Shown here: piece after piece, positions 29,157 to 59,236 of the stretch
Layout: each line of letters starts with the position of its first letter
Position numbering within the stretch: position 1 is the first letter of the stretch
Assembly: GCA_964417965.1 (NCBI GenBank)
Contig: CAYQJX010000002.1
Span: 80,486-144,485 of the forward strand
DNA: 64,000 bases
DNA from: an uncultured Elusimicrobiaceae bacterium
GTDB taxonomy: Bacteria > Elusimicrobiota > Elusimicrobia > Elusimicrobiales > UBA9959
Reading direction: 5' to 3'
The notes under the pieces: generated by a model
What the model was told of the DNA's origin: nothing
What the model saw: the letters and a program-made list of their open reading frames with translations, nothing else
Database searches by the model: none
Made by a program: the position numbers and the translations under genes

Positions 29157-30217
29157 AAAAATCAGTGGTAATCGCTATCGTCGGGCTGCTGGCCCTGGTG
29201 CTGTTCCTGCAGTATCTGCAGAGGCGCAATGTCGCCCCCGCGCTGCCCGCCGGCCAGGCTACGCCCGCGGCCGAGGCTCCGGCGGGCATCCCCCTGCCGG
29301 CCGAGGCTACCGTCTACGCGGCCCAGCCTTCGCAGGAAACGCGGCCCTCGGCCCCGATAAAGGCCCCGCCCTCTTCTATCTTCAGAGCTCCGGCCGAGAT
29401 GGCCGGCGCCGGCCCGCTGCCCACCATCAACGCGGACTTCGCCCGCGCCCCGATAGGCTACACCGGCAAAACCCTCAACGGCATCCTCTCCTCCCACGGC
29501 AAGGTCTGGGGCAACGCCACCTTCGGCCCGGATGTCTTCACCAAGGAAGAGAACGACGCCCTCTACAGCCTGCTGGCCCAGTTCTTCTCCTGCAACGCCG
29601 TCGCCTACGGCGACCTGAACATGTGCAACTTCCTGCCGGGGGCGCTGACCAAGAAGGATAAATATTTCTGGAGCCCGCACTACGCGTGCATGGACCCCGC
29701 CAGCCGCGTGCTCTTCTACGCTTACGCCGCCGGCCGGTTCAACGTCAACGGCGAGTCGGTCTGCCGCAAGTATCTAGCGGGGGACAGCGTGGAAGGCGCC
29801 AAGGTGCCGCCGGAATTCTGCCGCGAGGTGTCCAAGGGTTTTTCTTATATCTGCGACATGGCCCCGGCCCGCGACCGGAGCCGCTGCCGCGAGGCGTTCC
29901 CCGCCGACAGCCGCAACTGCAGGACCCAGGACTGCATGGACAACAACAGGCTTTACCTCTCGCTCCGGGACAACAACATTTCCGCCTGCCCGGAGAAGTA
30001 CATGACGGAGTGCGGCGTTTTCTCCACCAAGTCCGGTTCGGTCTGCTCGCTCATACTCGACAAGATCGCCGGCACTTTCGCCCAGACGGAGGCGACGCAC
30101 GAGCAGAATATGAGCCCCGAGAAAAAGAAGCGCCTCGAAGAGGCCCGCAAGAAAGAAGAACAGAAAATAATAGAAGACGTGAACAAAAACGCCAGGAAGG
30201 CCTTGGGTAAGGATTGA
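29153..30217 (+). CDS. Membrane-anchored Cys-rich protein (12 Cys), unknown family
   Basis: The start at 29153 gives MKKSVVIAIVGLLALVLFLQYL (TM anchor). A Pro/Ala-rich linker follows, then a domain with 12 Cys (FFSCNAV, NMCNF, YACMD, SVCRK, EFCRE, YICDM, SRCRE, RNCRT, QDCMD, SACPE, TECGV, SVCSL). The tail is charged and helical. Confidence 0.7.
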   Translation: MKKSVVIAIVGLLALVLFLQYLQRRNVAPALPAGQATPAAEAPAGIPLPAEATVYAAQPSQETRPSAPIKAPPSSIFRAPAEMAGAGPLPTINADFARAPIGYTGKTLNGILSSHGKVWGNATFGPDVFTKEENDALYSLLAQFFSCNAVAYGDLNMCNFLPGALTKKDKYFWSPHYACMDPASRVLFYAYAAGRFNVNGESVCRKYLAGDSVEGAKVPPEFCREVSKGFSYICDMAPARDRSRCREAFPADSRNCRTQDCMDNNRLYLSLRDNNISACPEKYMTECGVFSTKSGSVCSLILDKIAGTFAQTEATHEQNMSPEKKKRLEEARKKEEQKIIEDVNKNARKALGKD

Positions 30218-30228
30218 AGGAGCCGGCC

Positions 30229-30561
30229 ATGAAAAAGAAAAAACCCGGAGTAAAAAAGAACATAAAGCTCTTCCTCAACAGCGAAGAGGGGAAGATGCTC
30301 GACGCCGACATAGTGAAGGCCGGCCTCGCGCTGGGCATACTCGGCGCGGCGATGGTGGACCAGGCGAGCGCGCAGACCATCCACCAGAACTACTTCTACC
30401 CGCCGGCCGACCCGACCTCGCACGTCAGCCACCAGAGCCACGGCAGCCACGGCTCGCACGGCAGCCACGGCTCGCACGCCTCGCACGGCAGCCACGGCTC
30501 GCACGGCAGCCACGGCTCGCACGGCAGCCACGGCTCGCACGCCCGCGGCGGCTGGTGCTAG
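30229..30561 (+). CDS. hxsA: His-Xaa-Ser repeat protein (putative rSAM-modified precursor)
   Basis: RBS aaggag (30217-30222) precedes the ATG at 30229. The sequence reads MKKKKPGVKKNIKLFLNSEEGKMLDADIVKAGLALGILGAAMVDQASAQ, then TIHQNYFYPPADPTS, then 13 HxS triplets, then HARGGWC and stop. Confidence 0.9.
   Translation: MKKKKPGVKKNIKLFLNSEEGKMLDADIVKAGLALGILGAAMVDQASAQTIHQNYFYPPADPTSHVSHQSHGSHGSHGSHGSHASHGSHGSHGSHGSHGSHGSHARGGWC
30421..30543 (+). repeat. In-frame 9/18-nt tandem codon repeat encoding (His-Xaa-Ser)13
   Basis: The cacggcagc/cacggctcg units alternate Ser codons AGC and TCG. The 42-nt block cacggcagccacggctcgcacggcagccacggctcgcacgcc occurs twice (30439-30480 and 30502-30543). Confidence 0.95.
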
Positions 30562-35208: not shown

Positions 35209-36149
35209 TCCCCGTAGTCATACTTACCGCCGGCAGCGGCAAGCGCCTGGGCGAGGCGGGAAAACGTTTCCCGAAAGCCCTGCTGCCGGTCGGCGACTCC
35301 ACTCTGCTGGAAATGCACCTCAGGGCTTTCCTGGCCGCCGGCAGCCGCCGTTTCGTGATCGTCACGGATCCTGCCGACCGCTCCGTGGAGACCGCCGCCC
35401 GCGCCGCGCTGGCCGGCACCGGCTCCGAACTTTTTATAGCGCCGCAGGCCGAGCGCCTCGGCATCGGCCACGCCGCCTCCCTGGCCGCTCCGTGGCTGGC
35501 GGGGGGGGCCTTCGCGCTGGTACTGGGCGACACTTACTATTCGACGCCGCGTTTTTCCGGCGCCGTTAAGACCGTCGCCGAGGGGCGCGCGGACGCCGTG
35601 CTTTCCGTGCGCAGCGTGGAGGACGAAGCGGCCATCCTGAAGGAGTGCACGATAGCCCAGGACGATACCGGGCGCGTGCTTAAGATCATAGAGAAGCCGG
35701 CTCGCGCGCTCAGCCTGGTCAAACCCTGCGGCGTCTACTTTTTTGGCCCGCTCTTCCTGCCGGCCCTGGCGGCGACGCGCCCTTCCGCCCTGCGCGGCGA
35801 GATAGAGCTTACCGACGCGATACAGAACCTCATCTCGGCCGGCGGCCTGGTCACCGCCATGGAGACGCTCTCTCTGGACGTAAATATCACCTATCCGGAA
35901 GATATCGTAAAGGCCAACGCCGCCTGGTTGGGGGAGCGCGGCCTGCGGAGTTTCGCCCACCCCGGCGCCGAGGTGGGCCCGGGCGCGGAACTTGAAAATT
36001 CAGTGGCGGCGCGCGGCTCCTTTGTCGGGGCCGGCGCCAGGGTTAAGGATTCCGTCGTCTTCCCCGGCGGCCGGGTGGCGGCCGGCGCGGAGATCTCCGG
36101 TTCGCTGGTCCTGGAGGACCTTATTCTGCCGGCGGGCGGCCAGGCATGA
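35205..36149 (+). CDS. Sugar-phosphate nucleotidyltransferase with C-terminal hexapeptide-repeat domain
   Basis: The start at 35205 (ATGA overlap) gives MIPVVILTAGSGKRLGEAGKRFPKALLPVG. The C-terminal LbH repeats are GAEVGPGAELENSVAARGSFVGAGARVKDSVVFPGGRV. Confidence 0.8.
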   Translation: MIPVVILTAGSGKRLGEAGKRFPKALLPVGDSTLLEMHLRAFLAAGSRRFVIVTDPADRSVETAARAALAGTGSELFIAPQAERLGIGHAASLAAPWLAGGAFALVLGDTYYSTPRFSGAVKTVAEGRADAVLSVRSVEDEAAILKECTIAQDDTGRVLKIIEKPARALSLVKPCGVYFFGPLFLPALAATRPSALRGEIELTDAIQNLISAGGLVTAMETLSLDVNITYPEDIVKANAAWLGERGLRSFAHPGAEVGPGAELENSVAARGSFVGAGARVKDSVVFPGGRVAAGAEISGSLVLEDLILPAGGQA

Positions 36150-37615
36150 AGAAGAACCTGGTCCTGGTCCAGCCGGGTATCGGCGACATGGACATGTTCC
36201 GCGACAAGCCCACGCCGCCGCTGGGGCTGCTCTGCGCCGCGTCCGTGGCCTGCCGCGAGTTCGAGGTGCGCGTGGTGGACCAGCGCCTACCCGGAGACTG
36301 GCGGGCCGCGCTGGCCGCGGCCATAGACGCCGATACGGCGGCGGTCTGCTTTACGGCCATGACCGGCCAGATGATCACCCGCGCCCTCGAGGCCGCCGGC
36401 GAAGCGCGCCGGCTCACGGCCGCGCCGCTGGTCTGGGGCGGCATCCACGCCTCGCTGCTGCCGGAGCAGGCGGCGGCCCATGAGCTCGTTGATTACGTGG
36501 TGGAAGGCGAAGGGGAGAACGCGCTGGCGGAACTCGCCCGCCGCCTGGCCGCCGGCGCCGACACGGCCGGCATACCGGGGGTCTGGTTCAAGCGCGGCGG
36601 CCGGCCCTCGGCCCCGGCCCCCCAGGAACTCCTCGACGTGAACGCCCTGCCGCCCGTCCCCTACCACCTGGTGGACATGGAGCGCTACGCCCAGACCTAT
36701 AACGGGCGGCGCATGTTCTTCTACCAGTCCAGCCGCGGCTGCCCCTGCCGCTGCGCCTACTGCTATAACCGCGCCTTCAGCCGCGGCCGCCTGCGCGCCA
36801 AGCGCGCGGACCTGGTGCTGCGGGAGATCAAAGAGCTCCGGGCCCGGTACGATTTTTCCCTCGTCTATCTGCTCGACGATAATTTTTTCATAGACCAGGG
36901 CCGGGCGATGGCTATCCTCAAAGGCCTGAAGGGGTTGGGCCTGGGCTGCGTGCTGCAGGGCGTGGATATAGAGACGCTCGCGAAGCTGAGCGACGCCGAC
37001 CTGGATTTCCTGGAGGAGGCCGGCGTGGTTCGGCTGGCCATCGGCGTGGAGTCCGGCGTGGACCGCGTGCGCCGCGAAATCCTCAATAAGTCCGGCAGCC
37101 TGGCGCTCGCGCGCGCCCAGGTGGCGCGGTTCAGGGGCCGCAGTATAGCGGTGCTCTGCTCTTTTATCGTCGGGCTGCCTACGGAGACGCGGGCGGAGAT
37201 ACGCGAGACCATGCGCGTCGGGATGGAGATCCTTAAGCTGGGCGATAATTTCCGCATCCCGCAGTTCTATATCTTCGCGCCCTACCCCGGCACCGAGATC
37301 TACGCCGGGCTGGAGAGGGAAGGGACAGCTTTCCCGGGCAGGCTCGAGGAGTGGGGCCGCTACGAGTGGGATTATTCGCACATGCACGAGGGGGATCCCT
37401 CGCTGAAGGATTTCCTGGAGCGCGCCTGCTTTGTCAGCAAGTTCCTCGACCGCAAGATGGACGACTACGGCGCCGGCTCGGCCGCGCTCAGGGCGCTGTA
37501 CTATCTGTACAGGCCGCTGGCCTGGTTCAGGCTTGAATATGGATTTTTAAAGCCGCTGCCCGAGCGCTGGGGCTACGGCCTGCTGAAGAATTTTTTTCGC
37601 GCAGCGCCTCACTGA
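36146..37615 (+). CDS. B12-binding-domain radical SAM enzyme
   Basis: PPLGLLCAAS..., VCFTAMTGQ..., PLVWGGIHASLLPE..., DYVVEGEGE, then SSRGCPCRCAYC. Confidence 0.85.
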   Translation: MKKNLVLVQPGIGDMDMFRDKPTPPLGLLCAASVACREFEVRVVDQRLPGDWRAALAAAIDADTAAVCFTAMTGQMITRALEAAGEARRLTAAPLVWGGIHASLLPEQAAAHELVDYVVEGEGENALAELARRLAAGADTAGIPGVWFKRGGRPSAPAPQELLDVNALPPVPYHLVDMERYAQTYNGRRMFFYQSSRGCPCRCAYCYNRAFSRGRLRAKRADLVLREIKELRARYDFSLVYLLDDNFFIDQGRAMAILKGLKGLGLGCVLQGVDIETLAKLSDADLDFLEEAGVVRLAIGVESGVDRVRREILNKSGSLALARAQVARFRGRSIAVLCSFIVGLPTETRAEIRETMRVGMEILKLGDNFRIPQFYIFAPYPGTEIYAGLEREGTAFPGRLEEWGRYEWDYSHMHEGDPSLKDFLERACFVSKFLDRKMDDYGAGSAALRALYYLYRPLAWFRLEYGFLKPLPERWGYGLLKNFFRAAPH

Positions 37616-38340
37616 AAGAAATAACCGCGCCGCAGGTATTTAAATAGCACGCCGGCGATCTCGGCCAGGTAAGGCAGCGGGGCCAGGCTGGAGGAGCCGG
37701 GGCCGTAATAGGCGGAGACGGGCACCTGGGCCACGCGCAGGCCGAGCTTGCCGGAGCAGAGCAGCATCTCCCCGTCGAAATGGAATTTGTCGGTCAGGGT
37801 GTCGAACCGGATGGCGCCCAGCGCTCCGGCCGAGTAGGCCAGGTAGCCGGTGTGGTACTCGGCGAAGTCCAGGCCGAACACCAGGTTCTCCAGGGCGGTG
37901 AGCCAGCGGTTGGCCCAGTAGCGCGCGAACGGCATGCCCTGCCGCCTGGCCTGACCGGACAGCAGCCGGGAGCCGACGCAGACGTCCGCGGCTCCGGAGA
38001 AAAGCGGAGCCGTCATGGCCGGGAGCTCTTCGGGAGCGTACTGTCCGTCGGCATGCAGCAGGACGGCCGCCCGGCAGCCGGATTCCAGCGCGGCCTTGAG
38101 GCCGGTTTTCTGCGCGGCGCCGTAGCCGCGGTTGGCCAGGTGGGGCAGCACGCGCAGGTCCAGGCCCAGCCTCTGTCCGGCGGCCGCGGCCGCCGCGGCG
38201 GTGCCGTCGGAGCTGCCGTCGTCCACCAGCAGCACGGCCGCGCGCGGCAGGCGCGGCAGCACGGCGGCCAGGCGTTCCAGGGTGGGCGCTACGCTTTTTG
38301 CCGAGTTGTAGGCGGGAATTATAATGGCGAGTTCTGACAT
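37609..38340 (-). CDS. Glycosyltransferase family 2 (polyprenol-phosphate sugar synthase-like)
   Basis: MSELAIIIPAYNSAKSV...LLVDDGSSDGT. 243 aa. Confidence 0.85.
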   Translation of the reverse strand: MSELAIIIPAYNSAKSVAPTLERLAAVLPRLPRAAVLLVDDGSSDGTAAAAAAAGQRLGLDLRVLPHLANRGYGAAQKTGLKAALESGCRAAVLLHADGQYAPEELPAMTAPLFSGAADVCVGSRLLSGQARRQGMPFARYWANRWLTALENLVFGLDFAEYHTGYLAYSAGALGAIRFDTLTDKFHFDGEMLLCSGKLGLRVAQVPVSAYYGPGSSSLAPLPYLAEIAGVLFKYLRRGYFFQ

Positions 38341-45980: not shown

Positions 45981-47371
45981 TGGCGAAGAGGGACGACCGC
46001 CCCATGGACTTCAACTTCGCCCGCCGCGGCGGAGGCAGGCTGCTGTCCAACGACTTTTCCATGACCGCGGAGCTGACAGCCGCGGGGTTGGCCCGTTTCG
46101 CCAGCGGCGCGGCCCTGCCGCCCGCCATGGATAAAGCGCTGGAGGCCAAAGGTTTCTTCGCCGGACGGCTGGATTTCGCCAGGCTGCTGCCGCGGCATTT
46201 CGCGGCCCTGCTGGCAGATTGGAAAGGCCCTAAAGTGCATATCGTAGCCGTGACCGCCGCCTGCGACCACGCCTGCCTTTATTGCGGCGCCTCGTCCGGC
46301 TCCGGCGGGCGTCACATGAGCCGCGCGACGGCTAAAAAAACGCTGGATTTCATCTTCAGCACCGGCGCGCCGGAGCTGGTTATAGAGTTCCAGGGCGGTG
46401 AACCCCTCCGCAATTTTGAAGTGGTGAAGTATCTGGTCGGGGAGGCCAAACGCCTCGCGGCGCGGCAGGGCCGCGGCCTGCATTTCTCCATGGTCTCCAA
46501 CCTGGCCGGGCTTACTTCGGAGAAGCTGGCTTTTCTTGCCGCTAACGGGGTTACGCTCTGCACCTCTCTCGACGGCCCCGCGGCTATCCATGACCGCGGC
46601 CGCAAATATTCCGGCGGTTCCAGCCACGCCGCCGCCGTCCGCGGTATAGCCCTGGTGCAGAAACTCGCGGCGGCCGGGGAGCTGGAATCTCTTAACGCCA
46701 TCTGCACCATCACTAAGTATTCCCTGGCGCAGCCGAAGGCAATAGTGGACGAATTTTTAAAGCGCGGCGTAAAGCGCGTGCAGCTGGGCCCGCTGGAGCC
46801 CATTGGCCGCGCCGCCCGCGCGGGCCTGGGCGTGACCCCGGAAGAATTCCTCGCTTTCTACGCCGAAGCCCTGGAGTACATGCTGCGCCTGAACCGGAAG
46901 GGCGTGGAGGTGTACGAGAAGGGCGCGCTGATGTTCCTGGGTCAGATGCTCGGCGGCGAACGCCCGCGCTACCAGAACCTGGACCTGCTCTACCGGCTGG
47001 CCTACGGGCCGGACGGTTCCGTCTACGGCTCCGACGAGGCGCGCCTGCTGGCCGCCGGCGGCAACGAATTTTTCAGGCTGGGGTCCGTGGCGGACTCTTT
47101 CTGCTCGCTGGCGTCCTCCCCGCTGGGCCGCACGCTGATCCTTTCCTGTTTTCCGCGGCTGACGCAGCCGCGCTGCGCGCGCTGTCCGCACAGCGCCTGG
47201 TGCCGGGTGTCCCCGGTGTATAACCACGCGGCGCAGGGCGGTTTCTGGGGCGACATGATGACCAACGGCCGCTGCCGGGTCTTCATGGGCGTCTCGGACC
47301 TGCTGCTGGAGAAACTGAAGACCCCGGCGTCGCGGAAAATACTGGAAGGCTGGGCGGAGAAATATCAATGA
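45980..47371 (+). CDS. hxsB: Radical SAM maturase, HxsB-like (paralog 2, degenerate SPASM)
   Basis: CDHACLYC and FQGGEPLRNF. In the C-terminal region several SPASM Cys present in paralogs 1 and 3 are replaced (NLDLLY for CPCG, GSDEA for TCDEG, CRVSP for CGVCP). Confidence 0.75.
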   Translation: MAKRDDRPMDFNFARRGGGRLLSNDFSMTAELTAAGLARFASGAALPPAMDKALEAKGFFAGRLDFARLLPRHFAALLADWKGPKVHIVAVTAACDHACLYCGASSGSGGRHMSRATAKKTLDFIFSTGAPELVIEFQGGEPLRNFEVVKYLVGEAKRLAARQGRGLHFSMVSNLAGLTSEKLAFLAANGVTLCTSLDGPAAIHDRGRKYSGGSSHAAAVRGIALVQKLAAAGELESLNAICTITKYSLAQPKAIVDEFLKRGVKRVQLGPLEPIGRAARAGLGVTPEEFLAFYAEALEYMLRLNRKGVEVYEKGALMFLGQMLGGERPRYQNLDLLYRLAYGPDGSVYGSDEARLLAAGGNEFFRLGSVADSFCSLASSPLGRTLILSCFPRLTQPRCARCPHSAWCRVSPVYNHAAQGGFWGDMMTNGRCRVFMGVSDLLLEKLKTPASRKILEGWAEKYQ

Positions 47372-49530
47372 AGGCCGCTATGGACATAGAAAGGCTGCTG
47401 GCCTGCGCCGACAGGGACTCCCTGCCGGAGGCTCCGCCCAACTACCCGCCCATGGCGGCCTGGCCGGAGCTGCGCGGCACGGAGAAAATAATTTCAGCCT
47501 GGCGGCGTTCCCTCAAATCCGACGGCGGCCGCAGGCCCGTGGTCTACGTGCACGTGCCTTTCTGCGAAACCCTCTGCCGCTTCTGCGGCTTCTATAAACT
47601 CCCGGCCGCGCCCGGCGCGGTAGACCGCTTCCTGGACGCGCTGGAGAAAGAAATAAAGCTCCTGGGGCCGCTCTTCAAGGGCCGTCCGCTCAGGTTCCTG
47701 TGCATAGGCGGCGGCACGCCCAGCCTGCTGACCATAGCGCAGCTGGACCGGATGTTTAAAATGCTGCGGGCTTATTTTAAAGTCACGCCCAAGACCCGCA
47801 TAGCCTTCGAGGCCAGCCCGAATACGCTGGACCCGGAGAAGCTGGCCTTCCTGAAGTCCGCCGGCGTGGAATGGCTGGCCATCGGCGTGCAGAGCTTCGA
47901 CCCCGCCCTGCTTAAAGGCCTCAACCGCCGCCAGGACCCGGCGCAGACGGTGGCGGTTATAAAGCAGGCCAAGGCCGCCGGCATAAAGCAGGTGGAGGTG
48001 GACCTGATGACCGGCCTGCCGGGCCAGACCGGTGAAAGTTTTCTGCGGGACGTCCGCACCGCGGCCGGGCTGGACGTGGAACGCGTCTATCTTTTCGATT
48101 TCCAGCCGCGCTGCGGCACCTCCGCCGGCGAGCAGGCCGGCTCGCTCAAGCGCGGCGCGCTGGAGGACGCCAGGGCCTGGCGCCGCCGGGGCATGGATAT
48201 TTTAGTGTCGAAGGGTTATAAAATGCGCTGTGGGCACTGGGTTTACAAGCGCAAGGGCGACTGGTGGCCCTACAGCTACGACCAGGGCGAGGAAGGGTCC
48301 TACTCGGTGCTCGGCCTGGGGCCCAGCGCCGTGTCCTACGCCATGAACGCCGCCCGCTACCGCAGCGTTTCCGACGAGAAGGTTTATGAGAGGACGCTGG
48401 CAGGCGGCGCGCTGCCGCCCGCCGCGGGCTGCCTGCTGAGCCAGCGCGACGAGATGGTGAACTTCGTGCTGCTCGACGCCCTGCACCGCGGGCAAGTCGA
48501 TAAGAGAAATTTCCGCCGCCGTTTCGGCCGTGGCCTGGCCGAGGTCTTTGGCGGCGAGATAAAGGCCGCCAAGGCGGCCGGTCTGGCCGCCGACTCCGGC
48601 CGGGCGCTGCTGGTGACGGACAGGGAGCGGGCCACGGTGGAGCTGCGCGGCGCGCTGTACTCCCCGGAGGTGCTGGAGCGCCTGTCGAAAATTTACGGCC
48701 GCGGGAACGCTCCCGGGCATGAGCGGCCCGCGGCCGCACCCCCGGCCTTCAACCGGCAGGCGGAGCACACTCATGAATGCCGCCTGCAGGCAGGGGCGCT
48801 GGAGGCGCTGCTTTACGGCGCGTCCCCCGGGCCGGCCAGGGCGGGCAGGGACCTGGCCCTGGAGCTGCTGCGGGCCGCACGGGCGGGGAGGAAAGAAGCC
48901 CTGCTGCTCTCGGGCGCGGCTTTGCCCGGCCTGGCCGAGATAGAGGCGGCGCGCTACGCGGCCGGAGCCGGTTTTAAAAATATTTCGCTGTTCTCCCGCC
49001 TGCCGGCCGGGGCTGATTTCTTCAGGAACCTGAAGGCCGCCGGGGTTTCCGGTTTTCTCTTCAGGTTCGGAGCTGTTGTGTCCAGGGAAGAGCTGGCCGC
49101 CGTGAAGGCCGCCGCCTCCTCCGGGCTGGAGGCCAGTGGCGTCTACGTGCCGGGCTCGGCGGCCTCCCGGGGCGCTCCCGCAGCCATGAAAAAACTTTCT
49201 GCGGCCGGAGCCGCCGGGTTTATAGTCTCCTTTCCGGAGGGCAAGGAGAATATAACCGCCGATTACGCGGCTCTCGTGCCGCTGGCGCGCGCCGCTGGCC
49301 GGCTGGGCGCGAGCTTCCTCCGGGCCCCGCTCTGCGTGCTGTACCCGGACTGGGAGCGCTCGCTGGACTGCCTCAGGGGCGGCCAGGGCGATGCCCGCGA
49401 ATCCGGCGGCAGCGCCGGGGCGGTAAAGCCCAAGCTCTGCCTGCAGTGCCGGTTCCTGCTCAAATGCCCCGGCCCGGCGCTCGGCTACGCCGAGAAATTC
49501 GGTTTCAGGGGACTTAAGACCATCAAATGA
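47368..49530 (+). CDS. Fusion of a HemN-like radical SAM domain with a degenerate HxsC-like domain lacking CxxxCxxC
   Basis: The N-terminal half has VYVHVPFCETLCRFCGFYK and LCIGGGTPSLLT. The C-terminal half aligns to the HxsC-like paralogs (LLLSGAALPGLAEIEAARYAAGAGFKNISLFSRLPAG...) and ends CLQCRFLLKCPGPALGYAEKFGFRGLKTIK. Confidence 0.75.
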   Translation: MKAAMDIERLLACADRDSLPEAPPNYPPMAAWPELRGTEKIISAWRRSLKSDGGRRPVVYVHVPFCETLCRFCGFYKLPAAPGAVDRFLDALEKEIKLLGPLFKGRPLRFLCIGGGTPSLLTIAQLDRMFKMLRAYFKVTPKTRIAFEASPNTLDPEKLAFLKSAGVEWLAIGVQSFDPALLKGLNRRQDPAQTVAVIKQAKAAGIKQVEVDLMTGLPGQTGESFLRDVRTAAGLDVERVYLFDFQPRCGTSAGEQAGSLKRGALEDARAWRRRGMDILVSKGYKMRCGHWVYKRKGDWWPYSYDQGEEGSYSVLGLGPSAVSYAMNAARYRSVSDEKVYERTLAGGALPPAAGCLLSQRDEMVNFVLLDALHRGQVDKRNFRRRFGRGLAEVFGGEIKAAKAAGLAADSGRALLVTDRERATVELRGALYSPEVLERLSKIYGRGNAPGHERPAAAPPAFNRQAEHTHECRLQAGALEALLYGASPGPARAGRDLALELLRAARAGRKEALLLSGAALPGLAEIEAARYAAGAGFKNISLFSRLPAGADFFRNLKAAGVSGFLFRFGAVVSREELAAVKAAASSGLEASGVYVPGSAASRGAPAAMKKLSAAGAAGFIVSFPEGKENITADYAALVPLARAAGRLGASFLRAPLCVLYPDWERSLDCLRGGQGDARESGGSAGAVKPKLCLQCRFLLKCPGPALGYAEKFGFRGLKTIK

Positions 49531-50423
49531 AACGCATCGACATAAAGATCGGCTTCGGCTGCAACAACATGTGCGATTTCTGCGCGCAGGGCTCCAAGCG
49601 TTATAAGGGCCCGGGCAAAAGCCTGGCCGAGATAAAGGCCGCGCTGGCGCGCGCCCGCAAGACCGGCGTGAACGCCGTGGTGTTCACCGGCGGCGAACCC
49701 ACCATCCACCCGGACCTGCTCGCCGCGGTAAAGGCCGCCAGGAAGATGGGCTACGACACCGTGCAGGTGCAGACCAACGGCCGCCGCTTCGCCTATTACG
49801 ATTATTGCCTGGCGCTCAAGAAGGCCGGCGTCACCGAGATGGGCCCTTCGCTGCACGGCTCCACGGCCGCCATCCACGAGGGCCTGACGCACGCCGAGGG
49901 CAGCTTCAAAGAAGGGGTGCAGGGCATCCTCAACTGCAAGAAGCTCGGCATGTACGTGCTGACCAATTCCGTGATCACCTCCCGCAACTACAAGGACCTG
50001 CCGGCCCTGGCCAAGCTGCTGGCGTACCTGAAGGTGGACCAGTTCCAGTTCGCCTTCGTGCACCTGGTCGGTTCCGCCTGGGAGAACCGCAAGTGGCTGA
50101 CGCCCAAAATGACGGCCGCGATGCCGTATATAAAAAAAGCGCTCGACGTGGGCCGCGCGGCCGGCCTGCACTGTTACACCGAAGCGATACCTTACTGCCT
50201 GATGAAAGGCTACGAGGACTGCGTAGCCGAACAGGTGATCCCCGAAGGCCCGGTGGCCGACGCGGACCTGTACATCGAGAGCTACGGCGACTACCGCCGC
50301 GGCGAGGGCAAAGTCAAAAGGGCCGAGTGCAAAAAGTGCGGCTGGTTCAAAGCCTGCGAGGGCCCCTGGCGCGAATACCCCGAGCTTTACGGCTGGAGCG
50401 AATTTAAACCGGTGAAGAAATGA
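49527..50423 (+). CDS. Small radical SAM enzyme, HxsC-like paralog 3 of 7
   Basis: CNNMCDFC, GGEPTIHPD, SLHGSTAAIHEGLTHAEGSF, CKKCGWFKACEGPWREYPELYGWSEFKPVKK. Confidence 0.85.
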   Translation: MKRIDIKIGFGCNNMCDFCAQGSKRYKGPGKSLAEIKAALARARKTGVNAVVFTGGEPTIHPDLLAAVKAARKMGYDTVQVQTNGRRFAYYDYCLALKKAGVTEMGPSLHGSTAAIHEGLTHAEGSFKEGVQGILNCKKLGMYVLTNSVITSRNYKDLPALAKLLAYLKVDQFQFAFVHLVGSAWENRKWLTPKMTAAMPYIKKALDVGRAAGLHCYTEAIPYCLMKGYEDCVAEQVIPEGPVADADLYIESYGDYRRGEGKVKRAECKKCGWFKACEGPWREYPELYGWSEFKPVKK

Positions 50424-51841
50424 AAAAGCCTAACCCCTGCGAACCTTTCGACCTGCGCTTCGAGCGCGACGGCGCCGGCTATATCGTCTCCGGCCCGGCC
50501 GGCGCCGCGCTGAGGCTCACCGCGGCGGAATTCTCCGCCTTCAAAGCGGGTAAGACCAGGGACGGATCGCCCCTGTATAAAAAGCTGGCGGCCGCCGGGC
50601 TGCTGCGCGGCCGGCTGGACCTGGACGGCGTGACCGCCGGCCTGGCCAAACTTTCCGCCGGAGTTTTCGCCGGCCCGGGCCTGCATATCCTGGTGCTGAC
50701 GCTCAAGTGCAACCACGCCTGCGTGTACTGCCGCGCCACCGCCGGCGGTACCGGCGACACGGCCATGAGCCGGAGCACCGCGCTGCGCTCGGTCGAGACC
50801 GCTTTCCAGTCTCCCAATCCCAGGATCTCCATAGAATTCCAGGGCGGCGAAGCCCTGCTCAACTGGGAAGTGCTCAAAGCCGCCGTCGCGCACGCCAAAA
50901 AGCTTAACCTCAAGGCCGGCAAGGACTTGGCGCTTTCCGTGGTCACCAACCTCAGCCTGATGGACGAGGCCAAGGCCCGCTGGCTGGTACAAGAAGGCGT
51001 GTCGGTGTGCACCTCGCTCGACGGCCCTGCCGCCATCCATGACGCCAACCGGCGCTGGTCCGGCGGTTCTTCCCACGCCAGGGCGGTGCGCTGGCTCAAG
51101 TATTTCAAGGACGCGGCGGCCCGCGGCGGCGGCAAAGATTCGCTGCCCTCGGCGCTGATGACCACTACCCGGCTCTCGCTCGCCAATCCCCGCGCGATAG
51201 TGGACGAATACCGCGCCCTCGGCCTGGGCGGCATCTTCCTGCGCCCGCTGTCGCCTATCGGCTACGCCGCCGGCGTCTGGCCGGACATCGGCTACGCCCC
51301 CGGCGATTTCATAAAGTTCTACCGCGCCGCCATGGCGCGGGTGCTGGAGATAAACCTCTCCGGAGAGAAGTTCGTGGAGCGCAACGCGGCCCTGCTGGGA
51401 GCCAAGCTGCTGCGCGGCGAGGACCCCAACTTCCTGGACCTGCGCTCGCCCTGCGGCGGAGCTATCGGCCAGCTGGCTTACAACTACGACGGGGACGTGT
51501 ACACCTGCGACGAGGGCCGCATGCTGGCGGCCTGCGGCGACCCGTTCTTCAGGCTGGGCAGCGTGCATAAGAATTCTTTCCCCGAGCTGATGACGGCCCC
51601 GGCGGCCCGCGTCTGCGCCATGGCCTCCTGCCTGGAGAACCAGCCGTACTGCGCCCGCTGCGCCTTCAAGCCTTTCTGCGGCGTCTGCCCCGTGCACAAC
51701 TACGCCACGCAGGGCTCGCCCTGGGGGGACATCCGCGGCGGCGGCTGGTGCGAGCTGCAGAAGGGGATGTTTAAAACCGTTTTCGCCCTGCTGGAGAACA
51801 GGAAGAGCCGCAAGGTCATAGAGAGCTGGCTGGAAAAGTGA
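50420..51841 (+). CDS. hxsB: Radical SAM/SPASM maturase, HxsB-like (paralog 3)
   Basis: CNHACVYC and FQGGEALLNWEVLKAAV. Full SPASM set: SPCGG...GDVYTCDEG...CARCAFKPFCGVCPVHNY. Long identical runs with paralog 1 (GPGLHILVLTL, LNWEVLKAAV, CTSLDGPA). Confidence 0.85.
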   Translation: MKKPNPCEPFDLRFERDGAGYIVSGPAGAALRLTAAEFSAFKAGKTRDGSPLYKKLAAAGLLRGRLDLDGVTAGLAKLSAGVFAGPGLHILVLTLKCNHACVYCRATAGGTGDTAMSRSTALRSVETAFQSPNPRISIEFQGGEALLNWEVLKAAVAHAKKLNLKAGKDLALSVVTNLSLMDEAKARWLVQEGVSVCTSLDGPAAIHDANRRWSGGSSHARAVRWLKYFKDAAARGGGKDSLPSALMTTTRLSLANPRAIVDEYRALGLGGIFLRPLSPIGYAAGVWPDIGYAPGDFIKFYRAAMARVLEINLSGEKFVERNAALLGAKLLRGEDPNFLDLRSPCGGAIGQLAYNYDGDVYTCDEGRMLAACGDPFFRLGSVHKNSFPELMTAPAARVCAMASCLENQPYCARCAFKPFCGVCPVHNYATQGSPWGDIRGGGWCELQKGMFKTVFALLENRKSRKVIESWLEK

Positions 51842-51842
51842 T

Positions 51843-52736
51843 ATGCCCGATATAGCCGTCTGGAACAAATGCGACAACCGCTGCGTCATGTGTACCAACA
51901 TGACGTCTTTCGCGCTGCAGGACAGCGGCCAGTACCGGCTGAAGGCCCAGATAGAGAAAATGGAGCGCTACTTGAAAGGCCTGGGCCGGATCTACCTGAA
52001 GAACCCCGACAAGGCGGGCTACGTCAACCTGACCGGCGGGGAGCCCACCCTGCACCCGGACTTCTTCCCGCTGCTGGCCTATTTCAGGCGCCGCCTGCCC
52101 GGCCTGCCCATAACGCTGCTGTCCAACGGCCGCCGCTTCGCCGACCGCAAGTTCGCCGCCAGGTTCGCCGCCGCGGCGCGGCCGCCCTTCGGCGCGGCCA
52201 TAGCCCTGCACGGCCCGAACGCCAAAACGCACGACCCGGTGGCCGGCGTGCGCGGCGCCTTCGGCCAGACCGTGAAGGGGCTCCAGAATCTTTTCGAGCT
52301 GGCGCCGGGCCTGGCGATAGAGATACGCATAATCCTGCACAAGAAGACCATCGCCGCGCTGCCGGCTACACTGAAATTCCTGCTGGAAAAATTCCCCGAT
52401 ACTTCCCGCTACTCCGTTACGCTGATCCATTACGAGATAGAGGGCATGTCCGAGACCAACCACAGGTCGGTGGGTCTGAAGTTCGCCGCCTCCTCGAAGG
52501 TCCTGGCTAAAGCCCTGCCGCTGATAAGGCGCTTCGCCGACCTGCGTCTTTATCATTTCCCGCTCTGCCAGGTCTCGCCGGAGCTGCGCCCGCTGTGCCG
52601 CGTCACGCTGCCGCGCGAGGACAGGGTTTACCCGCCGGTCTGCTCGCGCTGCGCCGTTAAACGGAAGTGCCTGGGCCTGATGCTGGAATATTTCAAGAAG
52701 TTCGGGGCCGCCGAACTCAAGGCGATACGGAAATGA
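51843..52736 (+). CDS. Small radical SAM enzyme, HxsC-like paralog 4 of 7
   Basis: CDNRCVMC, GGEPTLHPD, ALHGPNAKTHDPVAGVRGAF, CSRCAVKRKCLGLMLEYFKKFGAAELKAIRK. Confidence 0.85.
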   Translation: MPDIAVWNKCDNRCVMCTNMTSFALQDSGQYRLKAQIEKMERYLKGLGRIYLKNPDKAGYVNLTGGEPTLHPDFFPLLAYFRRRLPGLPITLLSNGRRFADRKFAARFAAAARPPFGAAIALHGPNAKTHDPVAGVRGAFGQTVKGLQNLFELAPGLAIEIRIILHKKTIAALPATLKFLLEKFPDTSRYSVTLIHYEIEGMSETNHRSVGLKFAASSKVLAKALPLIRRFADLRLYHFPLCQVSPELRPLCRVTLPREDRVYPPVCSRCAVKRKCLGLMLEYFKKFGAAELKAIRK

Positions 52737-53884
52737 AGAACGTCTCCCTTATCTTCGTCGCCGTCTTCACCGCCTGGTGCGTTTCCGTGGTGAGCCGCGA
52801 CCTGGCCACCCGGAAAATCCCTAACGCGCATATAAAAGGCGGCCTGGCCATCTTCGCCGGGTTCCTCGCCGTCTTCGGCCTCTATACCGTGCTGGGCTAC
52901 GCCGGCAAGGAGCCAGTCTTCCTGAACTGGAATTTTTACCCGCTGCTCGCCGCGCACGTCTTCTGGTCGGCGCTGGCCGGGATCATACTCTGGTATGCCG
53001 AGTTCTGGCCGGCCGGGGACGCCAAGTTCTTCATCCTGGTGTCGGCCTCGCTGCCGCTGGCCAACCCCGAGCTGCGCAATTTCCCGCATTACCTGTTCCT
53101 GAGCCTGCTGATAAATATCTTCGTGGCGGCCGCCCTGTGGGCCGTGGGCAGCTACGTGGCCTCCGGCTTCCAGAGCGCCTCCCCGTCGTATTTCTTCGGC
53201 GAGCTGTGGGGGGACGTGAAGAAAAGACTGGGCATGCTGACGGAAGGCAAGAACAAGCTGCTCGCCGCCGCCAGCGTGGTCAACCTGGGCTTCCTGTTCC
53301 TGCTGCAGCAGATCCTCAACATGGAGGCGCGCGGTTTCCTAGCCCGCTTCATAGGCCGCACCGACGTGCTTTTCTTTTTCATGTTCATCCTGTGGGACAA
53401 GATAGGCGGCGTGTTCGCCAGCCGCCGCTGGCTCTATATCAGCATGGCCTCCTACGCCGTCTATCTCATAAGCGGCTACTTCCTGTTCCCCGACCATCTC
53501 ATGGTCATGGCCCTGGCCTCGCTCAAGAACGTCTTCCGCTTCAGCCTGCTATTGTTCTTCGGGCGCTTCATGCTGGAATTCCTGATGGAGAAAAAGGACA
53601 TCCAGAACCTCACCGCCCGCGAGCTGCAGCCCGGCATGGTGCTCTCCACCAAAGCCGCCCGCACCCTCAAGGAGAATGCCGCCTTCGAAGGGGCCTTCGA
53701 CGACTGTTTTCGTGACGGCCTCACTCCCGACCAGGTAGCCGAATTGAAGGATTGGATGGGCAAACTCACCGTCCACGAACCCAAGATAGAGATAGTTGTC
53801 GGGCGGCCTTTCGCGCTCTGGATCTTCGCCGGCGCCGCGCTGCTGCTGGCGCTGGACGGCAACATCACGAGGTTCTTTAAATGA
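52733..53884 (+). CDS. A24-family (prepilin peptidase/CpaA-like) aspartic intramembrane peptidase with extended C-terminus
   Basis: The start at 52733 gives MKNVSLIFVAVF. First Asp motif SRDLATRKIPN. Second Asp motif WPAGDAKFFILV. 383 aa, about twice the size of a CpaA-type enzyme, with extra TM segments and a ~90-aa hydrophilic insert. Confidence 0.75.
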   Translation: MKNVSLIFVAVFTAWCVSVVSRDLATRKIPNAHIKGGLAIFAGFLAVFGLYTVLGYAGKEPVFLNWNFYPLLAAHVFWSALAGIILWYAEFWPAGDAKFFILVSASLPLANPELRNFPHYLFLSLLINIFVAAALWAVGSYVASGFQSASPSYFFGELWGDVKKRLGMLTEGKNKLLAAASVVNLGFLFLLQQILNMEARGFLARFIGRTDVLFFFMFILWDKIGGVFASRRWLYISMASYAVYLISGYFLFPDHLMVMALASLKNVFRFSLLLFFGRFMLEFLMEKKDIQNLTARELQPGMVLSTKAARTLKENAAFEGAFDDCFRDGLTPDQVAELKDWMGKLTVHEPKIEIVVGRPFALWIFAGAALLLALDGNITRFFK

Positions 53885-54807
53885 GCCTGAAGAAGAAGCT
53901 CAAGATAGTGCTGTTCACGGGCTATGCCTGCAACAATAACTGCGCCTTCTGCATAGACGCGGACAAGCGCGGCCTGCCCCAGAAGACCACTCCCGAGCTC
54001 CTCTCCGAAGTCCTGCGCGCCGCGAAGAAAGGCGCCGACATCCTTGAGATAATCGGCGGCGAAGCCACCATTCGCCCCGACTTCAGCTCCGTAGTCGCCG
54101 CCGCCAAGAAACTCGGGATAAAAGAAGTCGCCTGCGCCACCAACGGCCGCGTCTTCGCCGATCCCGCCGCCGCCAGGCGCATAGTCGCCGCCGGCATAGA
54201 TTCCCTTATTTTCTCCGTGCACGGCCCCGACGCCCGCATCCACGACGCCCTTACCCGCTCGCCCGGCAGTTTCGCCCAGCTGAAAAAAGGCCTGGCCAAC
54301 CTGAAGGCCCTCGGCTTTTGTTCCATAAACGGCAACACCACCGTGGTAAAGCGCAACATGGCCGCCCTGCCGCGCCTCGCGGCGTTCTATGTGCGCCAAG
54401 GCGTGCGCAACGTGGAGTACATCTTCGTAGACCCTAACTACGGCGGCGCGAAGAACGATTTTGAAACCCTCGTGCCGCGCATCTCCGCTGCCGCCCCCTA
54501 TATGCGCGCCGCGCTGGCCATTGGCCGCCGGGCGGGCCTGGACCAGTGGAAGGCGCGCTACGTGCCGCTGTGCCATTTTGCTGACTGCCTGGACCAGATC
54601 AGCGAGCTGAATGAAAAAAAACTTTTTCTGACCGAGCACTGGGCCCCGGATTTCAAGAACACCGACGCCATCGGTTCCCGCGCCGAGGTGGCGCGCGCCA
54701 AGACCGCCCGCTGCCGGGGCTGCGCCCTGTACCGGGCCTGCGAAGGCATCTGGGTGGAATACCTCAAGCGCTTCGGCGACGGAGAGCTGAAGCCGGTGAA
54801 AAAATGA
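53881..54807 (+). CDS. Small radical SAM enzyme, HxsC-like paralog 5 of 7
   Basis: CNNNCAFC, GGEATIRPD, SVHGPDARIHDALTRSPGSF, CRGCALYRACEGIWVEYLKRFGDGELKPVKK. Confidence 0.85.
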   Translation: MSLKKKLKIVLFTGYACNNNCAFCIDADKRGLPQKTTPELLSEVLRAAKKGADILEIIGGEATIRPDFSSVVAAAKKLGIKEVACATNGRVFADPAAARRIVAAGIDSLIFSVHGPDARIHDALTRSPGSFAQLKKGLANLKALGFCSINGNTTVVKRNMAALPRLAAFYVRQGVRNVEYIFVDPNYGGAKNDFETLVPRISAAAPYMRAALAIGRRAGLDQWKARYVPLCHFADCLDQISELNEKKLFLTEHWAPDFKNTDAIGSRAEVARAKTARCRGCALYRACEGIWVEYLKRFGDGELKPVKK

Positions 54808-57001: not shown

Positions 57002-58288
57002 TCACCACCACTTGGTGAAATCGAATCGGTAGTAGTAGGCGATGACCAGCAGGTCCAGCGAGGCCGCGTAGACCGCGAGAGCCGGCAGGGCCGCCCGGCC
57101 GCGCGCCAGCACCAGCCTGCATCCCTCCCCAAAATAGACCGCTGCCGCCGGCAGGCAGAACATCAGGTAGGAAGCCTTCAGCATCCCGTGCGGGAGGGCT
57201 ATCTGGTAATACGTCCAGGCGGCTCCCGCCGCCATGATCAGCGTGAAAATATTCAGCGCGTCATAGCGCCTGTCCCGCAGACTTGAGGCGAGGCCCGCCA
57301 GGGTCACCGGGGCCAGCGGCAAGGCCAGCCAGAACAAGGCGTTGCGCAGCCCGGGCAGCTGAACGGCGGTGTGGATGCGGTCGAAAGAAAAGAAAGAAGC
57401 GTAGAGCCCGGTCAGCACCGAGCCGGACTCGTGCCAGTTGTTCACCGGGCCGGCGAGCAGGCTGAAGAAGTTGAAGGTGTAAAAGTCGTGCTCGTTAGCG
57501 CCGGACAACCAGGGCATTATTACCCCGTCCGGGGAGAGCAGCCGCGGCAGGTAGAGCCAGCCGGCCAGCGCCGCCGACAAGCCCCAAACTATGGCCAGGC
57601 AGCCGGCGAGCGCGGGCAGGGGAAAGCGTTTTTTGAAGAAACTGAGCAGGATAACGGCGTTGAGGAAGACGAAGCAGGCCGGGCCGGCGAACCGCGTGAG
57701 CAGCAGCAGGGCGCACAGCAGCGACAGCAGCGTCACCGCGCCCCAGCTCCTGCCGCCCGGCTCTGTTTTTACCGCGGCCAGCAGGAAAGCCCCGCACAGC
57801 GCGGCGTAAGTGACATCGGGCGAGGCGAAGTTGCTGAAATAGATGTGCGCCGGCAGGAAAAGGGCCAGGTTCAGCCCCAGCAGCGCGGGTGCCGGGTCCC
57901 GGCCGAAGTAATGCCGCAGCAGCAGGAACAGCAGGCCGAGCGAGAGGAAATTGCAGAGGAGCGACCAGAGCTGCGCCGCGCCGACGGGGTCGGGGGCCGC
58001 CGCCATCAGCGCTCCTACGACCAGATTGTGCAGCGGCGGCGTCCACTTGAGACCGGCCGCGGCGGTGCGCTGGAACTCGGCGTAGCTGAATTTCCCGGCC
58101 TCCCGCGCGCAGCGCGCTGCGGAACCGCAGGCGGAGAGCAGGCCGGCGTAGTGCGCGCGGGTCTCCGCCGCCAGCTCGAAGTAGGGATCGTACTGGAAGA
58201 CTACCGGCAGCCCCGCCGTCTGTACGCGCAGGAATACTCCGGCGGCGAACAGGGGGAGGAAGAGCAGCAGCAGTTTATTTTTTTTCAA
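57002..58288 (-). CDS. Multi-pass membrane protein, GT-C (ArnT/PMT-like) glycosyltransferase candidate
   Basis: More than 10 predicted TM segments and a composition typical of GT39/GT83-type enzymes. I chose the TTG start at 58288 (gives MKKNKLLLLFLPLFAAG), because the GTG at 58405 would overlap the divergent gene at 58391. Confidence 0.55.
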   Translation of the reverse strand: MKKNKLLLLFLPLFAAGVFLRVQTAGLPVVFQYDPYFELAAETRAHYAGLLSACGSAARCAREAGKFSYAEFQRTAAAGLKWTPPLHNLVVGALMAAAPDPVGAAQLWSLLCNFLSLGLLFLLLRHYFGRDPAPALLGLNLALFLPAHIYFSNFASPDVTYAALCGAFLLAAVKTEPGGRSWGAVTLLSLLCALLLLTRFAGPACFVFLNAVILLSFFKKRFPLPALAGCLAIVWGLSAALAGWLYLPRLLSPDGVIMPWLSGANEHDFYTFNFFSLLAGPVNNWHESGSVLTGLYASFFSFDRIHTAVQLPGLRNALFWLALPLAPVTLAGLASSLRDRRYDALNIFTLIMAAGAAWTYYQIALPHGMLKASYLMFCLPAAAVYFGEGCRLVLARGRAALPALAVYAASLDLLVIAYYYRFDFTKWW

Positions 58289-58390
58289 AGGGTTCGCCGG
58301 CTTCGGGGGCCTTATGCGCGGCCCCGCGTGAAATGTTATTATAGCGGTAGTGGAACATTTGTTGCAAACCGCGACGGCGAAACCAGTCGA

Positions 58391-59236
58391 ATGTCCCTGA
58401 TACACCTATTTAGAAAGTGCAACCAGCGTTGCGTGTTCTGCTCCTGGCCGGAGGAGGGGGGGCGCGGGCCGGAAGCCGGCCTGCGCGCTTGGTTGAAGGA
58501 GATCTCCGCCATGCCCGCCGGGCTGGTACAGCTCTCCGGCGGCGAGCCGCTGCTGGCCGGCGCCTATAACCTGTGCCTGCTGCTCGGGGCCGCCAGGCGG
58601 CTCGGCCGCCCGGTAGAACTGCAGACCAACGCCCTGGCCGCGGCCGCCATGCCGCAGGCCGACCTGCTCAAGCTGGCCGGCGCCCTCAACGCCGCCGGCG
58701 GCTACTTCAACGTAAATTTCCCGGCCGCCTCCCAGGCGCTGGACTATAAGATAACGCGCGCCCGGGGCGGCTTCAAGAAGCGGCTGGCCGGGGTGCGGCG
58801 GCTGATGAAAGCCGGGGCGAAAGTGCGCCTCACCCACGTTATCAGTTCGCTCAATTACAAGGCCCTGCCCGCCTTCGCCGCCCTCGCGGCGGGGAGCCTG
58901 AAGGGCGCGGCCTGGATACAGTTCAGCTATATAAAAGGCGCGGGCCGGGCCGAAGACGGAACGTTCATCCCGGAATATTCTAAAGTGCAGCCCTATTTGG
59001 AAAAAGCCCTGGCGGCCTGCGCCAGGGCCGGCCTCCATTGCGAAGTGGACCATGTCCCGCCCTGCCGCCTCGGGGAATTCTGGCGGCTTAACGTGGACAT
59101 AGAGAAAATGAAGAAAGGCCTGAAGGGGCCGCACCTGCTGGAGAAAAAGCGCGTTGGAGCCTGCAGGGGCTGCCGCTACGCCGGAGTCTGCCCTGGTCCG
59201 AGGAAAGATTATATAGCCGTGCATAAAACTTTATGA
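58391..59236 (+). CDS. Small radical SAM enzyme, HxsC-like paralog 7 of 7 (most divergent)
   Basis: MSLIHLFRKCNQRCVFC, SGGEPLL, CRGCRYAGVCPGPRKDY. Only the C-terminal 281 aa of the 621-aa track ORF are credible. Confidence 0.75.
   Translation: MSLIHLFRKCNQRCVFCSWPEEGGRGPEAGLRAWLKEISAMPAGLVQLSGGEPLLAGAYNLCLLLGAARRLGRPVELQTNALAAAAMPQADLLKLAGALNAAGGYFNVNFPAASQALDYKITRARGGFKKRLAGVRRLMKAGAKVRLTHVISSLNYKALPAFAALAAGSLKGAAWIQFSYIKGAGRAEDGTFIPEYSKVQPYLEKALAACARAGLHCEVDHVPPCRLGEFWRLNVDIEKMKKGLKGPHLLEKKRVGACRGCRYAGVCPGPRKDYIAVHKTL

Follow-up and report, generated by a model that had tools for sequence, protein, structure and literature searches.

We report the analysis of a fusion gene for a two-domain radical S-adenosylmethionine (SAM) protein, located in a 64,000-nucleotide stretch of DNA (the window, whose coordinates are used throughout) from an uncultured Elusimicrobiaceae bacterium (GenBank assembly GCA_964417965.1, contig CAYQJX010000002.1, positions 80,486 to 144,485 of the forward strand). 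The encoded protein joins a HemN-like radical SAM domain, predicted to be active, to a C-terminal domain of HxsC type that has apparently lost its radical chemistry. Comparison with its relatives reveals a clear evolutionary series: at one end stands an enzyme with two radical SAM heads, at the other an enzyme with a single such head and a pseudoenzyme domain in place of the second. HemN-like and HxsC-type radical SAM enzymes and pseudo-SAM proteins are all kinds already known.

Pseudoenzymes are rarely documented in the radical SAM superfamily, and a family of orthologs in which the second domain is intact, motif-dead or partly deleted constitutes a natural series and a clean system in which to ask what role a radical SAM fold plays once its chemistry is gone. 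The fusion gene is also a conserved part of a large uncharacterised cluster of groundwater Elusimicrobiota, which in the window numbers 17 radical SAM genes and includes a gene for an (HGS)n precursor. The HXS antiphage system, described recently, is a relative of this cluster, and knowing which domains are catalytic matters for understanding the chemistry of the cluster. In Escherichia coli, the four-gene HXS system constitutes an antiphage defence that blocks DNA entry; HxsB and HxsC mature HxsA, and HxsC is found in complex with HxsD (PMC13128918). Large suites of radical SAM genes, some with HemN_C, have been described in groundwater Elusimicrobia by Meheust et al. (bioRxiv 10.1101/765248).

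An initial annotation, produced by a model from the nucleotide sequence, had described the gene as a HemN-like enzyme fused to a pseudo-HxsC domain devoid of its cluster motif, had related that domain block for block to seven small paralogs in the window and had proposed that it is retained as a docking or substrate-binding module. It had suggested alignment against the paralogs, structure prediction and a database search for the same architecture as ways of checking this reading, and had named a frameshift or misassembly joining two separate genes as an alternative. The work presented here follows up these points.

The fusion gene and its HemN-like domain

The gene is a single uninterrupted open reading frame (Table 1) that shares an ATGA junction with each neighbour: its start codon overlaps the stop of the HxsB-like gene before it, and its stop codon the start of the small radical SAM gene that follows. 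The HemN-like character of the N-terminal part, including its VPFCETLCRFC and GGGTPS motifs, is borne out by Pfam, in which Radical_SAM (PF04055) matches residues 60-230 with 94.2 bits (gathering score 29.5) and HemN_C (PF06969) matches residues 357-421 with 26.6 bits (gathering score 24). The cluster motif is kept in all full-length members of the family described below. Among NCBIfam models the best match is the STM4012 family, with 178.9 bits against a cut-off of 380, and the domain also falls below the equivalog cut-offs for ChuW/HutW (157.2 vs 400), HemN (146.6 vs 325) and HemW (139 vs 205). Foldseek matches the AlphaFold2 model to HemN (1OLT) with an E value of 1.5e-26 and a TMt of 0.77. 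The N-terminal half is a HemN-like radical SAM domain that forms a subfamily of its own; it has all the features expected in an active enzyme and is predicted to be one. The linker that connects it to the C-terminal domain varies in length across the fusion family.

Table 1. Features of the fusion gene and of the surrounding cluster, in window coordinates
Feature	Position	Strand	Evidence or remark
Whole fusion gene, 720 residues	47368..49530	+	Single uninterrupted open reading frame, stop codon included
N-terminal HemN-like radical SAM domain, residues 1-438, predicted active	47368..48681	+	Pfam, NCBIfam, Foldseek
N-domain cluster motif C66-x3-C70-x2-C73 (VPFC66ETLC70RFC73)	47563..47586	+	Read from sequence
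GGGTPS motif, residues 114-119	47707..47724	+	Nearly invariant in family alignment
Inter-domain linker, residues 439-466 (~28 residues)	48682..48765	+	Low pLDDT, highest dN/dS in protein
Degenerate HxsC-type radical SAM barrel, residues 467-650	48766..49317	+	AlphaFold2 model, hhalign, dN/dS
Former cluster site ECRLQAGALEALLYG, residues 470-484; C-x3-C-x2-C in intact relatives	48775..48819	+	Family alignment
Former GGEP site LLLSGAALPG, residues 512-521	48901..48930	+	Family alignment, hhalign
C-terminal tail, residues 651-720: PLC656, GDARES 674-679, C691-x2-C694-x5-C700-PGP, terminal FGFRGLKTIK	49318..49527	+	Conservation, dN/dS
Intact HxsC4-like paralog, translationally coupled downstream	49527..50423	+	NF038332 142.5 bits, below cut-off; ATGA overlap
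HxsB	50420..51841	+	TIGR03978 432.6 bits vs cut-off 370
HxsC-like radical SAM protein	51843..52736	+	TIGR03977 161.6 bits vs cut-off 267.9
HxsA4-type precursor, (HGS)n repeats, ends RGGWC	30214..30561	+	NF038313 67.1 bits vs cut-off 55; repeat scan
Two B12-binding radical SAM genes	31751-33844, 36146-37615	+	Between precursor and HxsC-like block
Standalone HemN-like radical SAM gene, 451 residues	41240-42595	-	Groups in tree with standalone P0039, outside fusion family
405-residue polytopic membrane protein	52667-53884	+	Weak Peptidase_A24 (prepilin peptidase) match, 22.7 bits, below gathering score
Cysteine desulfurase	59233-60483		At end of radical SAM block

Relationship of the C-terminal domain to the small paralogs

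Neither Pfam nor NCBIfam models matched residues 440-720 of the window protein, and when three degenerate C-terminal domains were run against NCBIfam at E<=10, no radical SAM, HxsC or HxsC4 model was among the matches. The seven small paralogs counted by the initial annotation are indeed present, starting at 42669, 43736, 49527, 51843, 53881, 55807 and 58391. When residues 440-720 were searched against the window proteins with BLASTP and phmmer, only the last ~40 residues were recovered, aligned to the extreme C-termini of the paralogs. A hidden Markov model (HMM) of six in-window paralogs scored 19.4 bits on residues 681-720, the best of 500 shuffles reaching 4.0, and aligned the barrel collinearly without significance. 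These methods see the tail only, and on their evidence alone the block-for-block correspondence would look unproven.

Comparison with hhalign, by contrast, places the relationship above background beyond the tail. Aligned to the paralog profile, the window sequence by itself matched over 223 columns (probability 94.8, E 5e-8, score 60.4); 60 shuffles scored 14.5 +/- 2.7 with a maximum of 22, and the reversed sequence 14.8. The block alignment given as an example in the initial annotation was reproduced, with LLRAARAGRKEALLLSGAALPG pairing with VLRAAKKGADILEIIGGEATIRPD. For the barrel body (residues 467-650) the single window sequence produced a weak signal, 27.1 against a shuffle maximum of 22.0, the E value reaching 4e-7 with a profile of 13 window-clade sequences and 3e-14 with a profile of all 24 cluster-less members. 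With the tail included, the same 24 members matched the paralogs with an E value of 1.3e-23, and a 12-sequence family profile that comprises intact members matched them over 282 columns (E 2.5e-39). Because intact and degenerate orthologs form a chain that leads to the paralogs, the C-terminal domain is established as homologous to them; judged by these alignments, residues 467-720 descend from an HxsC/HxsC4-type radical SAM enzyme.

Loss of catalytic motifs within the fusion family

In the family alignment, HECRLQAG-ALEALLYG of the window protein aligns exactly to YECRLTANCNLNCGFC of the intact relatives. Comparison with 12 such relatives upholds both the absence of the cluster motif and the replacement of GGEP by SGAA, and extends the list of losses: TNG has become SRL and ~13 residues are deleted at SxH..HD. 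The three-cysteine cluster motif of radical SAM enzymes was not found after strand 1 of the C-terminal domain, where C471 is the nearest and only cysteine; the others of the domain are at positions 656, 668, 691, 694 and 700. From these losses we infer that the second domain is unable to hold a radical SAM cluster or SAM and performs no radical chemistry.

An exhaustive HMMER search with residues 440-720 against 1.84 billion representative proteins returned 11 relatives, among them nine proteins of 628-794 residues matching by their C-terminal part and one contig-edge fragment; P0012, an unrelated repeat protein, was discarded. With the full-length query the family grew to 35 independently assembled proteins of 607-794 residues from NCBI, JGI, ENA and Logan, all of them fusions, set apart by a score gap (at least 358 bits inside the family vs at most 230 bits for standalone HemN-like proteins of ~450 residues). 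Word-indexed searches with the C-terminal domain alone or with a 12-sequence profile found one homolog each, probably because alanine-rich words dominate the query. Every named source among the 35 is an Elusimicrobiota metagenome-assembled genome, and a scan of 185,579 species-representative genomes located 19 fusion loci, again all in Elusimicrobiota. The same architecture thus recurs well beyond the window: the closest species representative, GWB2_63_22, shares 95% identity and the length of 720 residues, and a copy of that length with 94-95% identity is represented by P0013 and L010.

Twelve of the 36 members, the window protein included, are intact, with a second domain that contains C-x3-C-x2-C (e.g. 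CNLNCGFC), GGEP, TNG and SxH..HD..G..F, and the remaining 24, to which the window protein belongs, have lost all four motifs. Two cluster motifs are found in 5 of the 19 species representatives and one in 14. The intact second domains match NF038332 (HxsC4) or TIGR03977 (HxsC) best, with E values of 1e-18 to 1e-27, at 42-97 bits that lie below the cut-offs of 268 (HxsC) and 500 (HxsC4). The degenerate members span 33-94% identity, with a full-length barrel in most of the 24, and the site of the former motif carries unrelated sequences in different degenerate clades.

Neighbour joining on the N-terminal domains of 32 full-length members and 5 outgroups (200 bootstraps) recovers the fusion family as monophyletic with 100% bootstrap support; the tree is distance-based, and some of its internal nodes are weak. 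Degenerate members occupy several positions in it: the window clade (12 sequences, 100%); a clade of P0026, P0034, P0032, P0031 and P0009 (100%) beside an intact clade (72%); P0003 and P0023, with P0005 loosely attached; P0036; and P0033, the sister of intact P0035 (100%). If the full motif set is never regained, the strongly supported nodes would call for at least three losses, and our best estimate is that there were probably five or six. The tree and the alignment together place two active radical SAM domains in the ancestor and indicate that the degenerate state arose repeatedly.

Some members of the basal clade, which includes P0033 (607 residues), P0036 (640 residues) and the loci L022, L023 and L025, have deleted much of the barrel, keeping its first beta/alpha units and the cysteine-rich tail; GDARES is absent from that clade. 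These deletions look like a further step of domain erosion.

Predicted structure

The full-length AlphaFold2 model, run with the 36-sequence alignment, has a predicted local distance difference test score (pLDDT) of 90.0, falling below 50 only at linker residues 451-455, and a predicted template modelling score (pTM) of 0.88, a high value which suggests that the two domains are held in a fixed arrangement. Alternating strands and helices over residues 468-651 form the predicted beta/alpha barrel of the C-terminal domain, with pLDDT mostly above 90, and are followed by a tail of coil and short helices; modelled alone, the domain reaches a pLDDT of 84.4. Foldseek searches of the PDB with the C-terminal domain model place LipA, BioB, SkfB, BlsE and MoaA among the top matches (E 2e-5 to 8e-4, TMq 0.44-0.55), with generic TIM barrels interspersed. 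Model and fold matches support the partial (beta/alpha)6 TIM-barrel anticipated by the initial annotation. In sequence comparisons the family profile matches SkfB (E 1.8e-12), GDGT-MAS, PqqE, BlsE and viperins.

Selection and conservation of the cysteine-rich tail

The ratio of nonsynonymous to synonymous substitution rates (dN/dS), estimated by the Nei-Gojobori method for the window gene against four relatives, is 0.08-0.18 in the N-terminal domain (residues 1-438), 0.26-0.51 in the linker (439-466), 0.19-0.38 in the barrel (467-650) and 0.08-0.27 in the tail (651-720). The barrel is relaxed, yet clearly under purifying selection, and the tail is approximately as constrained as the catalytic N-terminal domain.

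Conservation across the 36 sequences is likewise concentrated in the tail, where C694, C700 and G702 are invariant and at least 90% of the sequences share C656, D675, R677, E678, K687, C691, L698 and Y707; outside it, A531 is the sole residue of the C-terminal domain that is invariant or more than 90% conserved. Two cysteines of the resulting four-cysteine pattern are invariant and two are present in more than 90% of the sequences, and the corresponding four are invariant in six aligned paralogs. These conserved cysteines suggest an auxiliary iron-sulfur site in the tail.

The fusion and the products of 49527-50423, 51843-52736 and 53881-54807 all end at, or within two residues of, FG..(E)(F/L)K(P/T/A)(V/I)(K/R)(K). 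Because conservation reaches the very end of these proteins, the free C-terminus may itself have a function, for instance in docking into a partner.

Genomic context

The fusion lies among 17 radical SAM genes in ~32 kb (window ~27388-59236), made up of three HxsB-type genes, seven HxsC/HxsC4-like genes, three further radical SAM/SPASM-like genes (30657, 44790 and 54804), two B12-binding genes, one standalone HemN-like gene and the fusion itself; genes for tetratricopeptide repeat (TPR) proteins are also found in the block. In size it far exceeds the canonical four-gene HXS system. Two of the three HxsB-type genes exceed the TIGR03978 cut-off of 370 (432.6 and 469.6 bits). With these and a precursor containing HxS repeats, the locus holds both the HxsA and the HxsB component of an HXS locus; no gene reaches the cut-off for canonical HxsC, the best HxsC-like gene scoring 161.6 against 267.9 bits, and no HxsD model matched any scanned protein, the 405-residue membrane protein of Table 1 being found instead.

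The HxsA4-type precursors share a basic N-terminus, a hydrophobic segment, a long HxS run (mostly HGS) and a conserved C-terminal RGGWC. Very similar precursors are encoded 7-9 kb from the intact fusions P0025 (L003, 2346-2621) and P0008 (L008, ~600-908), and the syntenic locus of the degenerate P0018 has the gene order of the window. The proximity of similar precursors to intact and degenerate fusions, together with the shared synteny, argues that both versions of the fusion serve the same pathway. The fusion sits within large radical SAM clusters in six further loci that were examined, and the HxsC4-like paralog at its 3' end is conserved in that position in L001, L004 and L006.

Interpretation

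All of these analyses uphold the structural reading of the initial annotation. The gene encodes a genuine, conserved two-domain enzyme of a family restricted to Elusimicrobiota, and we think it probable that its dead HxsC-type half serves as a non-catalytic module of the HemN-like half. An ancestor with two active radical SAM domains gave rise to the window lineage through the loss of CxxxCxxC, GGEP, TNG and ~13 residues at SxH..HD from its second domain. The dead domain would remain packed against the HemN-like domain and, while the HxsA4 (HGS)n peptide is matured, would hold in position a probable auxiliary iron-sulfur site together with a surface that binds the peptide or a partner. Its former radical chemistry would be left to the seven free-standing paralogs encoded in the cluster. 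Catalytic redundancy with these paralogs may have permitted the loss. The docking or substrate-binding role proposed in the initial annotation is plausible; with the strongest constraint falling on the four-cysteine/GDARES tail and not on the barrel, what has been retained may be an iron-sulfur role or a role at an interface, and not barrel-mediated substrate binding.

Several observations weigh against this interpretation and, in part, favour its main rival. Loci with intact fusions also hold many small paralogs, so redundancy alone does not explain the loss. Scanned against Pfam at E<=10, the tails matched neither SPASM nor twitch domains; in a comparison with the SPASM regions of the in-window HxsB proteins, hhalign did align C-x2-C-x5-C, but at a non-significant E value of 0.26. 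The barrel itself may contribute little: its dN/dS exceeds that of the N-terminal domain in every comparison, ~2.4-fold in three of the four and 1.2-fold in the fourth, its composition has drifted to 20.5% Ala, and much of it is missing from P0033 and P0036, which keep the tail cysteines. Along with the near-complete confinement of strongly conserved residues to the tail, from which A531 is the one exception, this is what would be expected if the barrel were a decaying remnant or spacer, eventually to be deleted, and only the ~70-residue cysteine-rich tail mattered. We nevertheless judge such decay unlikely, given that the dN/dS of the barrel (0.19-0.38) is well below 1, that most of the 24 degenerate members, at identities of 33-94%, retain it without shortening, that it is modelled with pLDDT mostly above 90, and that a profile of degenerate barrels alone still recognises the paralogs (E 3e-14).

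Non-canonical cluster motifs are known elsewhere in the radical SAM superfamily, and the fairly well conserved C471 lies near the former motif, which might be taken to mean that the second domain still works as a radical SAM enzyme with its cluster held by other ligands. This is very improbable: there is no three-cysteine constellation near strand 1; GGEP, TNG and SxH..HD are lost as well, the last by deletion; the former motif is unrelated between degenerate clades; and no radical SAM model matches at E<=10. The frameshift or misassembly of two genes raised by the initial annotation is for practical purposes excluded by the same uninterrupted architecture in the 35 independently assembled proteins and 19 species-representative genomes, by the existence of a near-identical copy with the same 720-residue length (P0013, L010) and by a family alignment that runs collinearly through the linker. 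Chance or compositional similarity to the paralogs might be suspected of a low-complexity, alanine-rich domain in which BLASTP sees the last ~40 residues only and a single-sequence barrel scores 27.1 against a shuffle maximum of 22, but it is scarcely credible in view of profile matches with E values of 1e-23 and 2.5e-39, collinear over 240-282 columns, of intact members that bridge to HxsC4 and HxsC, of reversed and shuffled controls that remain at background, and of a fold that agrees.

We further put forward, as a doubtful though conceivable idea, that HxsC-type domains may have a second, non-radical function which resides in the cysteine-rich tail and is essential by itself. Such a domain might act as a scaffold that depends on an iron-sulfur cluster, or as a chaperone with HxS-repeat peptides or partner enzymes as its clients. 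If true, this would explain the repeated conversion to a pseudoenzyme in Elusimicrobiota with the tail kept under selection nearly as strong as that on the active domain, and would change the reading of HxsC in HXS antiphage systems.

On a practical level, no Pfam or NCBIfam model describes the degenerate domain, so annotation pipelines label these proteins as coproporphyrinogen oxidase family or radical SAM proteins; a model built from the present family alignment would correct such annotation.

Comparison with known systems

Neither this fusion nor its degenerate domain turned up in our search of the literature on HxsC4/HxsA4, pseudo-SAM proteins and tandem radical SAM domains, and the protein is best understood by comparison with several known groups. 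With HxsC/HxsC4 (TIGR03977, NF038332) it shares the whole-length homology of its C-terminal domain to the paralogs of the same cluster, and with HxsC/HxsC4-like paralogs the C-x2-C-x5-C of the tail and the terminal FG..(E)xK; unlike them, the domain is devoid of CxxxCxxC, GGEP, TNG and the SxH..HD segment and is fused to a HemN-like enzyme. The locus resembles HXS systems in its HxsA4 and HxsB genes, which score above curated cut-offs, but differs from that of E. coli in having 17 radical SAM genes instead of two, in its occurrence in Elusimicrobiota instead of Pseudomonadota, and in a precursor that is a short (HGS)n peptide and not a protein with a peptidoglycan-binding domain. The antiphage function has been shown for the four-gene E. 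coli system only.

The N-terminal domain is similar to HemN (1OLT), HemW, ChuW/HutW and STM4012 in its CxxxCxxC and GGGTPS motifs, its Radical_SAM and HemN_C domains and its HemN fold. It departs from this group in that the protein has a family-specific N-terminal PPNYPP and a 280-residue C-terminal extension, and in a context of peptide maturation rather than tetrapyrrole metabolism. Loss of cluster cysteines together with conservation in maturation gene clusters has parallels in TIGR04347 (pseudo-SAM/SPASM) and TIGR04419 (the HemN-related non-iron pseudo-SAM protein PsgB). These are free-standing proteins of other subfamilies, whereas the pseudo-domain described here is of HxsC type and fused to an active radical SAM domain, and intact orthologs within its family make the transition directly visible.

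FbiC, a fusion of CofG and CofH, provides a precedent for two radical SAM domains in one protein. This two-domain enzyme is mentioned in PMC11917521. The ancestral and intact members of the present family resemble it in being one polypeptide with two complete radical SAM domains, and differ from it in their domain types, HemN-like and HxsC-like, and in the inactivation of the second domain in most family members. Finally, among the twitch/SPASM proteins SkfB (6EFN), BlsE (7VOB) and MoaA, SkfB and BlsE are matched by both sequence and fold. The C-x2-C-x5-C of the tail, with one upstream cysteine, resembles the second half of the SPASM motif, but the matches to these proteins cover the barrel and not the tail.

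Further observations on the locus

The 405-residue membrane protein encoded at 52667-53884 is conserved in these clusters and lies directly 3' of the fusion in L003 (12393-13613); the HxsA4 peptide might have its leader removed by this protein, or be exported by it. The row of radical SAM genes is broken by an open reading frame on the opposite strand (57002-58405, -) for a hydrophobic multi-pass protein of 467 residues, which matches no family; L004, syntenic in other respects, lacks it. This open reading frame is overlapped by a plus-strand open reading frame of 621 residues, the first 340 of which are of low complexity, so that the true start of this downstream gene is probably near 58391.

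Between the precursor and the HxsC-like block, the interval that contains the B12-binding radical SAM genes, and in which 33868-36149 and 37609-38340 (-) also lie, holds an FAD-dependent oxidoreductase-like gene, a sugar-1-phosphate nucleotidyltransferase-like gene and a gene for a GT2 glycosyltransferase. From this gene content, methylation and glycosylation are conceivable modifications of the product. Related clusters encode other long radical SAM proteins with Radical_SAM and Fer4_12 domains (L008, 3150-5339, 729 residues; L007, 12280-14175, 631 residues), which may be further fusions.

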